Source: Eledone cirrhosa (lineage: Eukaryota). Taken from it: a stretch of 64,000 nucleotides of DNA. Location of the stretch: positions 41,044,001 through 41,108,000 of the forward strand of contig OZ024757.1 of NCBI GenBank assembly GCA_964016885.1, read 5' to 3'. This document shows positions 4,576 through 60,301 of this stretch, piece after piece (position 1 is the first letter of the stretch; every line of letters starts with the position of its first letter). A model generated the notes under the pieces. That model was not told the origin of the DNA. It saw nothing but the letters and a program-made list of their open reading frames with translations, and ran no database searches. Position numbers and translations under genes: made by a program.

Positions 4576-4640
4576 TATTTTGTCTGATGAAGGCATACCA
4601 TAATTTAATGTGGTATCCCTGAAATATGTATAATGAAATA
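4576..4640 (+). ncRNA. Type-I minimal hammerhead ribozyme (family B)
   Basis: Stem I tattttgt/atgaaata; CTGATGA 4584-4590; stem II agg-c-atacca/tggtat-c-cct; GAAA 4621-4624; stem III atatgtat; predicted AUA cleavage. Lies in island ~4515-4770 ending in (TA)n. Confidence 0.8.
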
Positions 4641-18363: not shown

Positions 18364-19467
18364 TTACAGTTTGTTCAAAAGAATGCTTTTGATGACAACA
18401 TTCTTAGTTGACTGGGTATCCTTCAGAAACACTCAAACATTTTCTTTTCGTTTTCCGCGGCTAATGGCTACATACAGTTGACCGTGTTGGAATACAGGTC
18501 GTTCCAGATAAACCAAGACGTTTACCATTTCTTTTGGCAACATAATTTCCTCATTTTCAGTTTTTTTTATCTTATCTTCTCCAATATCCAATAGGAACTG
18601 TGAATAGTCTCCTGCTCCCCCACCCAATCGCCTGTTTGTCTTCAACTGAAATCTTTTGAAGCTTCGCCATAAGTAGGATTTCCCCTTTTCACTACCGGAA
18701 GAAGCTGACGGAAATCGCCACAGTAAATTGTTAAAATTCCACCGAATGTCTCATTGGTCAACAGCTTCGAAGCTTTCCCTTCGAATGTCTCATTGGTCAA
18801 CAGCTTCGAAGCTTTCCCTTCGAATGTCTCATTGGTCAACAGCTTCGAAGCTTTCCCTCCGAATCATAGGACACTCATCCCAAACAATCAACCTTGTATG
18901 CTGGAAGAGGTTTGCCGTCTTTGAGTTTTTATCAATGTTGTACAGACCATTTTCTTTCACTACTATCGGTATTTTGAACCTAGAATGCGCTGTTCTTCCA
19001 CCAGGCATCAGTGTTGCGGCAATGCCAATGACGCAACAGCAATAGCCATGACACCGTTTCCCCTGACTTTTGAAAGAATTAAGTTAATCAGGAATGTCTT
19101 TCCTGTTCCACCTGGAGCGTCAATGACTGTTACAAACGAAGTCGTACACGTGTTTTTGTTCACTCTTCAATAGAGGCTCTGTCTCTTCTACAAATCGTCG
19201 CTGCTCTTCTCTTGTGTAATGCAATTCATGCAATAACTCCAAATTGCCAATATCCTGATTAGCAACAATATTATTTGGCCTTGGCAAGTTAAAGTCACTA
19301 AGACTTTTGCCCAGGTCGTTAAGTTTGTCTTCAAAATACAGAAGACATTGATCATAATGTCTCTTGCTAATCAAACGGCTAGAATTTCTGGTAGCCCTTT
19401 TTTCTATTTGAAGGTAATCTTCAGACAGCGAATGCTTAAATCGAACCCTTAAAGCTGGAATTGTCAA
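18364..19467 (-). pseudogene. Helitron Rep-Hel PIF1-family helicase fragment (frameshifted, internally deleted)
   Basis: Motifs on the minus strand: DAPGGTGKTF (Walker A), GIAATLMPGGRTAHSRFKIP, IVWDECPM, GDFRQLLPVV, VFQHGQLYVAISR, TKNVV. Confidence 0.92.
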
Positions 19468-19493
19468 TTTCTGTATTTGTGAGGAGCACTCGA

Positions 19494-19678
19494 TGGATTG
19501 GCAGTATCGGTAGAGGGTCGGATGTCATGCTTTCCAGCACCGTTACGTCCCTTTACGATCTGAGTTCAAATCCCGCCGAGGTTAACTTTGCCTTTCATCC
19601 TTACGGGGTCGATAAAATAAAGTACCAGTAACGCACTGGGTTATTGCTGGCCTTGTGCCTAAAGTAGAAACAGTTATT
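19494..19678 (+). mobile_element. tRNA-derived SINE
   Basis: Same family; lies next to the Helitron fragment. Confidence 0.85.
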
Positions 19679-34026: not shown

Positions 34027-34200
34027 AGTGACGTTTACTAAACACTAATATAATACCAACAGTACTACAACTGGTGATAATGATGGTGATGATGATGATG
34101 GTGATGGTGATGGTGATGATGATGATGATGGTGATGGTGATGGTGATGGTAATGGTGATGGTGATGATGATGATGGTAATGGTGATTCTGATTTAGTTTT

Positions 34201-34288
34201 AGATTTCTACAGGACTAGAAATGTTTCATTCATATGAAAATCATCCTGATGATTTCATACAAATGAAACAATTCTAGTCTTGAAATCT
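34201..34288 (+). mobile_element. Family A fold-back with HHR core
   Basis: Imperfect palindrome homologous to 1628-1731; CTGATGA 34246-34252, GAAA 34265-34268, GTC 34277-34279. Confidence 0.65.
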
Positions 34289-34784
34289 GTGTCCTTACAC
34301 ACCAGTAGGGCCCATGCTAAAAGAAAATAGGAAGAAAAGACTTCAGTAACATCAAGTGAGATAGAAAGGGGAGACTTCCCTTCATCAAAAGCGAACCACA
34401 GATTGTTTAATACAGAGAAAACTGGGGAATGTTTTGATGAAATTTAGGTCCCTATAGACACTGGGGAGGCCCATGCTTGAATAAAATAGAAAGAAAGGAC
34501 TTTAAAAACATCTAGTGAGATAGACAGAGGAGACTTCAATCGTCAGAGGAGAATGACAAATTATTTAATATAGGGAAAGGTGCTGAATATTTTGATGAAA
34601 CCTGGCTCCCTTCAGACAGCAGGGCGTCTCTGGTAGAAGAAAAGAGATAAGAAGACAATCAACATTGAGATAATTTCTCGGATTGGGAAAGCTCAAGGTT
34701 AAAATGACAAATATACAAACAGATACTATTGTCATTAAAAGAAAAGAAATATATGTAAATATATTTAAATATGTTTAAATGCAT

Positions 34785-40246: not shown

Positions 40247-40332
<86 letters not shown>

Positions 40333-40348
40333 TTCCGTGTAACCATGT

Positions 40349-40398
40349 CCATTACGAGCTGAGGATCCGCTAAGGTGAAACAATTGTTCTCGGTATGG
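40349..40398 (+). ncRNA. Minimal hammerhead ribozyme with GUU site
   Basis: Stem I ccat-ta-cgag/ctcg-gt-atgg; CTGAGGA 40359-40365; short stem II cc-gctaa-gg; GAAA 40377-40380; acaattgt; ctgagtgctc at 40449. Island 40330-40494 lies in (TA)n. Confidence 0.72.
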
Positions 40399-40491
40399 TG
40401 AGTGAACTAACTGTTGTGTAACCACTTCTACCTAATTCGTCCCATGGACTGAGTGCTCTACCACTACGGATATTACCTTCCAGTGTTCTAC

Positions 40492-40526
<35 letters not shown>

Positions 40527-40557
40527 GATATAATGCTCTGAAATAGCGATATTTATG

Positions 40558-40854
40558 TGAAGACAAACACAGAATATTCGAAAATATTCTGTATGTTTAT
40601 AATAAACATTTTGAAGACCTAATCGCTATAGAATAGAATACGTCACGTATTACAATTTGAGATTCTCGATAAAAGCAAGGGAAGTAACCTACGCGTTTCA
40701 TTCTTATTAGAAATCATCAGGATTACATATCCAATGCTTTTATCGAGAATCTCAAATTGTAATACGTGACGTATTCTATTCTATAGCGATTAGGTCTTCA
40801 AAATGTTTATTATAAACATACAGAATATTTTCGAATATTCTGTGTTTGTCTTCA
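40558..40854. repeat. Perfect 120-bp inverted repeat with a 57-nt loop
   Basis: Arms 40558-40677 and 40735-40854. Confidence 0.92.
40684..40726 (-). ncRNA. Type-I minimal hammerhead ribozyme
   Basis: Minus strand: gtaatc CTGATGA t-ttct-aata-agaa-t GAAA cgcg TA ggttac; palindromic acgcgt stem III; GUA site. Confidence 0.85.
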
Positions 40855-41166
40855 TATATATATATATTTGTATATATCTATAGGATAACAAGGTATCTTT
40901 TAAGGTAATCCAGCTAGAGGTTGTGAGTACTCTGTGTCGCGGGTAGTTTTAACATACAGCGTTGTTTGACTCAACAAGAAGATTCCTTAGTCAGGTGGCC
41001 AATTTAAAAGAGTTCCTAGGTAGGCTGTTCTTGGAGTAATAATAGTAAAAGAATGAAGAATAACATGGTCAGCTGTACAATAGGGGTTATTTACAGTATT
41101 AACAATTGTTTCTTTAATCAGGTGAGTCTAAAAGCCACTGATTATTAGAAGTTACGTCACTCAAAC

Positions 41167-59868: not shown

Positions 59869-60301
59869 TATTAAAATAACAGATTAAAGTTTAACCAAAG
59901 AATCGCTGCTTTCACCCTTAACGGGATCTTCAGAAGACCCCGTTAAGGGTGAAAGCAGCGATTCTTTGCTTAAACTTTAATCTGTTATTTTAATACATAT
60001 TTGCTCTACGGTTCTTATATATTTGATATATATTTATCCTTATCGAGCCCTCTTTGGATTTTTGTCTTCGAATTTATTATTATTACTAAATATATATATG
60101 TATATATATTTATATGTATATATATATTATATATATTTTCGGGTTATAGCTACTGTTGCTCAGAGAGTGGGATTGGCTCAGTGCACAGTCTTTCCTCACT
60201 TTAAAAAATATCTTCATACACAGGCATTGCACGATAGAATTATTAATAATTATTAATAATGTAATGATGCAATGGGCATACTCGATAACGAGGGGGCAGC
60301 C

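Follow-up and report, generated by a model that had tools for sequence, protein, structure and literature searches.

A fragment of a tandem retrozyme family forms a hairpin with a hammerhead ribozyme as its loop and was probably inserted by Penelope-like priming from both target ends

Introduction

Retrozymes, the link between retrozymes and Penelope-like elements (PLEs), inverted PLE copies, the tails of these copies, and their palindromic joins are already in print. The layout of a Penelope insertion is outlined in PMC8557442: a truncated copy lies in inverted orientation, one end has a tail, and the target is a microsatellite. According to the description in PMC11167929, a purified PLE protein cleaves both strands and extends them, starting at two internal sites of the RNA that bound the tail, and the steps following priming are given there as not yet validated. 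An overlap of 15 bp at the join is stated for Pen2a_Av in the PLE insertion literature (PMC8557442, PMC3846280, PMC11167929, PMC4209133).

Searches in the main texts of an open-access collection retrieved no report of inverted or two-ended retrozyme insertions. In twin priming by L1, both target ends prime on the RNA, which yields an inverted segment joined by microhomology. Here, a perfect hairpin with a ribozyme loop is analyzed, which is located in a window of 64,000 nucleotides (the whole stretch of DNA under study, from contig OZ024757.1 of Eledone cirrhosa). What the locus adds is a recurrent join at the stem that closes the ribozyme.

Results

Geometry of the hairpin locus

The original prediction had described two identical inverted arms of 120 bp around a loop of 57 nt with a minus-strand hammerhead ribozyme. 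This geometry was reproduced: left and right arms (Table 1) are exact reverse complements at 120 of 120 positions, the pairing extends no further, and the hammerhead in the loop has an intact core. The extent had been drawn too short, since the element reaches 36 nt further left, to position 40522. Overlooked at that time were also the origin from a tandem retrozyme family and the native stem that sets the boundary of the loop, which contributes 16 of the 120 arm pairs and is present in every monomer. The insertion contains one ribozyme and less than one monomer, all of it inside (TA)n, which forms the flanks; a long duplicated flank is visible at a related locus, L031. A second hammerhead-bearing high-copy repeat adjoins the insertion on the left in the same (TA)n tract (40330-40495, plus strand, core at 40359).

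Table 1. Features of the hairpin locus, in window coordinates; monomer positions refer to the 312-bp repeat
Feature	Position	Strand	Remark
Whole two-armed retrozyme insertion	40522..40854	-	Monomer 213 to 1 on the minus strand (40522-40734), then 58 to 177 on the plus strand (40735-40854)
(TA)n target, left side	40496..40521		
Penelope-type tail, monomer 178-213	40522..40557	-	On one arm only
Left arm	40558..40677	-	Monomer 58-177 of the tailed copy
Small internal monomer hairpin (143-165)	40569..40592		Mirrored at 40820-40843; A165G in both arms
3' strand of the native 16-bp stem	40662..40677	-	Monomer 58-73
Type I hammerhead	40678..40734	-	Monomer 1-57; core 40720-40714; GAAA 40699-40696; predicted cut after 40690
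16-bp overlap at the join	40735..40750		Monomer 297-312 on minus equals 58-73 on plus
Right arm	40735..40854	+	Tailless copy of monomer 58-177 in inverted orientation
(TA)n target, right side	40855..40867		Monomer 178 and 182 not as in the tailed arm, hence target-derived

The locus belongs to a 312-bp retrozyme family

The hairpin locus is a sub-monomer fragment of a 312-bp tandem non-LTR retrozyme family and not a stand-alone hairpin gene. When the same genome (3.0 Gb in 1796 contigs) was searched, 1365 candidates emerged, and the 40 that were scored were mostly 99% identical and spaced 312 bp apart. An exact 29-nt family motif occurred at least 871 times, the native join upstream of the ribozyme at least 222 times, and the tail end joined to (TA)n at least 162 times, which indicates at least 162 insertions. 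The family forms tandem arrays of up to 17 full units with a ribozyme in each monomer. Its unit length falls into the 150 to 450 bp given for retrozymes, its GC content is low (0.31 to 0.33), and its hammerhead is of type I with a conserved core, as in non-LTR retrozymes. Coding capacity was not found, as the 45-amino-acid frame over the insertion had no Pfam match. A locus is treated as "active" by Li et al. 2026 (10.64898/2026.07.22.740005), as far as the definition is given there, if at least two ribozyme units follow each other, which does not apply to the hairpin locus. Family-related sequence was present in contigs of at least four organisms, and contigs of X1, X2, X3, X4, X5, and X6 carried the family with other alleles and with the native join; among the contigs listed, none extended across the hairpin locus.

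The insertion had been predicted to be young, and this agrees with the family data, in which copies are 98 to 100% alike. Singletons were found at 172 of 66,721 bases (0.26% per base), which leaves a chance of about 0.54 that 120 arm pairs are identical. Perfect identity of the arms is therefore explained by youth and needs no selection.

Two variants at the small internal hairpin, A165G and a loss of 2 nt at monomer 164-165 (window 40570 and 40842), recur on several haplotypes. Both render this hairpin perfect, which suggests quasi-palindrome correction or selection on the RNA. That A165G is a private, mirrored error of the hairpin locus was considered and rejected, because 4 additional loci with different haplotypes have it as well, and it is found together with G171A in others. 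In a one-armed array of 17 full monomers (L059, G000:C3:8724100-8729350), variants repeat at intervals, pointing to local duplication at the DNA level after insertion.

Two-armed insertions have fixed outer ends

A total of 68 loci were mapped, and 67 remained after L042 had been dropped as a duplicate of L043. These were the matches listed on the largest contigs, a sample biased to multi-copy and two-armed sites, in which 54 of 67 loci showed two head-to-head arms; L076 was scored as single-armed because its short arm is partly deleted. The outer ends were at monomer 208-218 and 176-187 in 48 of the 54 two-armed loci, so that insertions of this family end at two constant points of the monomer, about 213 and 177-186. 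These 48 loci have the layout of a Penelope insertion, an inverted shortened copy with a tail at one end, in a microsatellite or AT-rich target.

Neither arm was contained in the other at 14 of 48 loci, including the ribozyme-loop hairpins L077 and L078. Because neither arm could have been copied from the other at these sites, priming from both DNA ends is favored. Rare alleles shared by at least two monomers were found 60 times in both arms, at 30 loci, and 8 times in a single arm, which indicates one template per insertion, either circular or a uniform multimer. Some alleles were confined to adjacent monomers, which bears on the choice between a circular and a multimeric linear template. Among minor variants with a mirror position, 1 was mirrored and 95 were unmirrored.

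The tailless ends give information on the second start. The base at monomer 178 was the T of the target in 38 of 55 tailless ends compared to 1 of 205 other monomers, and the T182A allele carried by the tailed arm is absent from the right flank of the hairpin locus. These bases are thus target DNA.

The arms join at the stem that closes the ribozyme

Each monomer closes its hammerhead with a stem of 16 bp (297-312 with 58-73), which is the longest inverted match in the monomer, followed by one of 9 bp. Its pairing was kept across 183 native copies, with a compensatory change from G-C to A-U in 3 and G-U variants in about 40. The two arms of the hairpin locus overlap by exactly these 16 nt. The loop is the ribozyme because every monomer closes its ribozyme with this native stem, and the stem is where the arms overlap.

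Joins in the family are generally microhomologous. Among 35 joins without inserted bases, 11 had an overlap of at least 3 nt, compared to 8% of 20,000 simulated joins (p = 6 × 10−5); bases were inserted or missing at 13 of 48 joins. A pattern specific for the 16-bp stem join retrieved 5 loci on 4 contigs (the window locus, L018, L031, L032, and L076), and 2 more (L077 and L078) were joined at the GGA/UCC helix, with different haplotypes and flanks. Among 120 to 400 two-armed insertions, the 16-bp join would be expected 0.04 to 0.2 times, and 5 were observed (p at most 2 × 10−6); a calculation by hand without the window locus gave p of about 6 × 10−5. The perfect arms comprised 120 bp in the window, twice 125 bp, 107 bp in L031, which has the same architecture as the window locus, 86 bp in L018, and 45 bp in L076, while L032 keeps 5 bp; 3 of these 7 stem- or GGA/UCC-joined loci thus had perfect arms of at least 120 bp. 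Of the 6 complete hairpins, 3 had the ribozyme on the tailed arm and the other 3 had it on the tailless one.

Joining at the cut site of the ribozyme was rejected as an explanation, since inner ends at 40-52 numbered 4 of 96 with 4.0 expected, so that cleaved RNA ends do not set the joins. Together with a tailed arm that runs through the cut site, this indicates that the template was uncut or religated.

The ribozyme in the loop is predicted to need a partner

Read on the minus strand, the loop contains the core CUGAUGA, the GAAA, a palindromic ACGCGU (40696-40691), and the cleavage triplet GUA (40692-40690). Helix I is GUAAUC/GGUUAC with 6 bp plus an outer GGA/UCC, helix II is a U-U pair plus three standard pairs, and helix III is a palindrome of 1 to 2 bp. 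Rfam matched Hammerhead_HH9 at 40735-40670 with 20.6 bits and an E value of 0.0096, under the gathering score of 52. The Rfam scan of the whole window gave only microsatellite look-alikes of miRNAs among 150 of the 259 matches. The motif had been called a minimal hammerhead, a label that has to be changed to canonical type I with a short helix III; the minimal form of PLEs, as characterized in PMC4209133, has a helix II of 7 to 8 bp with a G10.1-C11.1 pair and lacks helix III, and the motif here differs from it.

A minus-strand (sense) transcript was predicted to fold into a long double-stranded RNA hairpin with a stem of 120 bp at −206.8 kcal/mol, as had been proposed. It is doubtful that a single copy of this RNA would open its loop unaided. 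In folding models, which ignore tertiary contacts, the active hammerhead shape was at +0.6 kcal/mol (−4.6 without helix III) compared to −9.6 for an alternative fold, so that the active shape is not the predicted ground state, and the palindrome of helix III would pair with itself at −9.5. Canonical metazoan type I motifs with a short palindromic helix III cut poorly as monomer but well as dimer in the account of PMC4209133, and weak monomer activity is listed in PMC7229834 for motifs of the axolotl that have this helix III or a U-U pair at the base of helix II. A palindromic helix III of 1 to 2 bp is the kind for which both sources report the need for a dimer. Because helix III is of this kind and a U-U pair closes helix II, the hammerhead is predicted to need a partner copy, and a lone ribozyme would cut poorly unless paired with another one.

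Other parts of the window contain hammerhead-like sequences as well. Plus-strand core matches with a long helix II, resembling solo motifs of the PLE type, are at 4584, 7781, 21967, and 60755. Three short head-to-head palindromes of other families (1628-1730, 34198-34290, and 59880-59980) each consist of two hammerhead halves on opposite strands, and the family of the palindrome at 1628-1730 also adjoins GIY-YIG frames (L151, L154, and L158).

A sister family and the search for a coding partner

A sister retrozyme family has monomer 106-201 in common with the 312-bp family at about 76%. Its hammerhead is enclosed by a separate stem, and its insertions show the two-ended layout as well. Its copies (L117:2430-2870, L166-L200) contain a different hammerhead, a common 3' region (monomer 106-213), and a tail of 34 nt; the common 3' region is a candidate recognition site for the mobilizing protein. 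Two sister loci join at their own stem, L199 with a cut arm and L171 with a small loss. Of 5 matches to the stem-join pattern of this family, 4 were rejected as point variants of the native sequence, and 1 (L199) is a real join. Generality of the stem join beyond the 312-bp family is only hinted at.

An autonomous Penelope partner with a matching repeat was not present among the 50 GIY-YIG loci examined (PF01541, from at least 150 scored matches), where comparison for pLTR homology gave only 74 to 82% matches to neighboring non-coding repeats. No coding neighbor that could be tied to the repeat was found at 30 sister-family loci. Open frames of 844 to 1096 codons are in L146:3809-6622, L147:2488-5019, L148:1775-5062, and L155:200-2935; the first three overlap a GIY-YIG match, and all four are candidates for intact Penelope-like elements.

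Discussion

The hairpin is best explained as a two-armed retrozyme insertion, for which a Penelope-like protein cut the (TA)n tract, primed both DNA ends at two fixed sites of the RNA, and the cDNA ends annealed via the 16-bp stem; a probability of roughly three in four is assigned to this explanation. Its basis is the observed family membership, the fixed outer ends, the tail on one arm, the 16-bp overlap at the join, the recurrence of this join, and the (TA)n target. Reverse transcription would be primed from both DNA ends on the same RNA after the cut by the protein of a Penelope-like element. The first cDNA would start near monomer 213, cross the ribozyme in its uncut or religated state, and reach 312-297. 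The second one would start near 177, possibly helped by pairing of the target TA with the AU-rich stretch 178-186, and stop at 58. The 3' ends of both cDNAs would then be complementary over 16 nt, so that annealing and fill-in could produce a perfect hairpin with exactly the ribozyme as loop. The hairpin is then probably a by-product of insertion and not a working hairpin gene.

The same by-product could arise by fold-back, if a single cDNA passed through the ribozyme, its 3' end snapped back onto the 16-bp stem within the same molecule, and the cDNA was then extended on itself as template up to 177. This is the simplest intramolecular geometry for the window locus, L031, and L076, where the tailless arm lies within the tailed one, and it fits the hairpin locus, taken alone, equally well; self-priming has been proposed for palindromic PLE joins, as noted in PMC3846280. 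It is nevertheless impossible for the 14 loci in which neither arm contains the other, the tailless ends look target-primed, and minor variants were almost never mirrored. Unmirrored variants may post-date the insertion, which weakens the mirror test, and fold-back is considered unlikely. Perfect inverted repeats are also a known class of artefacts, and MITEs insert at TA. A fold-back chimera of library or assembly, or a foldback or MITE DNA transposon with terminal inverted repeats, is however extremely improbable: the ends are asymmetric by the 36-nt tail, the flanks are distinct, the same join also occurs with different haplotypes on further chromosomes, and the family has a tandem structure in which inner joins vary. 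Assignment to a foldback transposon, with symmetric, fixed terminal inverted repeats and a unit length, was rejected because the tail is at one end and arm lengths and joins vary.

A functional reading would make the locus a selected, transcribed hairpin RNA, the long double strand of which is diced or A-to-I edited while the ribozyme in the loop opens the hairpin. A transcript is predicted to fold very stably around an intact ribozyme core, RNA from monomer families of this kind is described as abundant in other animals (PMC7229834), and small RNAs from PLE copies are mentioned for a rotifer in PMC3846280. On the other hand, the identity of the arms requires no selection, the locus is smaller than one monomer, and sister hairpins decay, as the shorter perfect arms of L031, L018, and L076 and the remnant in L032 demonstrate. 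A host exon was not found among the 136 open frames, although an intron position is still compatible; these frames gave only Helitron-like PIF1 pieces and one weak match. Taken together, selection for this RNA is very unlikely. The broken pieces of a PIF1-like helicase on the minus strand (window 18430-19530) are probably a decayed Helitron.

Compared with these alternatives, priming from both ends remains the preferred explanation, and the value of the locus is mechanistic. The hairpin itself is ordinary, one of at least seven in a young repeat family, but the recurrent 16-bp join at an RNA stem, combined with outer ends at two fixed positions, leaves a clean footprint in the genome of two cDNAs that annealed to each other. 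The exact join sequences can be used to seek the hairpin RNA. A wider notion is that the ribozyme-closing stem is a preferred site of cDNA joining, by which the family repeatedly writes ribozyme-loop hairpins that, if transcribed, would be double-stranded RNA against the whole family, cleavable only with a second family RNA pairing via helix III; in this full form, it is a speculation with rather low odds.

In comparison with known systems, the family resembles the animal non-LTR retrozymes as portrayed by Cervera and de la Pena 2020 (PMC7229834) and Li et al. 2026 (10.64898/2026.07.22.740005), which have a non-coding, AT-rich tandem monomer of about 300 bp with one type I hammerhead each. Helix III is as in the axolotl motif HHR_Amex1, and the U-U pair at the base of helix II is as in HHR_Amex2, going by their depiction in PMC7229834. 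The consulted passages of PMC7229834 and 10.64898/2026.07.22.740005 mention neither inverted arms nor fixed ends. Unlike published retrozymes, the hairpin locus is shorter than one monomer and two-armed.

Both target ends priming on the RNA and an inverted segment joined by microhomology are features in common with L1 twin priming. The insertion here differs in that each start has a fixed site and in that a tandem or circular template causes the arms to share sequence.

Agreement is also seen with the PLE insertions treated in PMC8557442, PMC3846280, PMC11167929, and PMC4209133, which exhibit an inverted 5'-truncated copy, a tail at one end, (TA)n targets, a palindromic overlap at the join, two internal start sites, and nearby hammerheads on opposite strands. 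In contrast to PLEs, the insertion contains no reverse transcriptase or GIY-YIG frame, the tail has 27 to 36 nt, and the overlap at the join is the ribozyme-closing stem and recurs across loci. The insertion works like a passenger of a PLE but is not a PLE.
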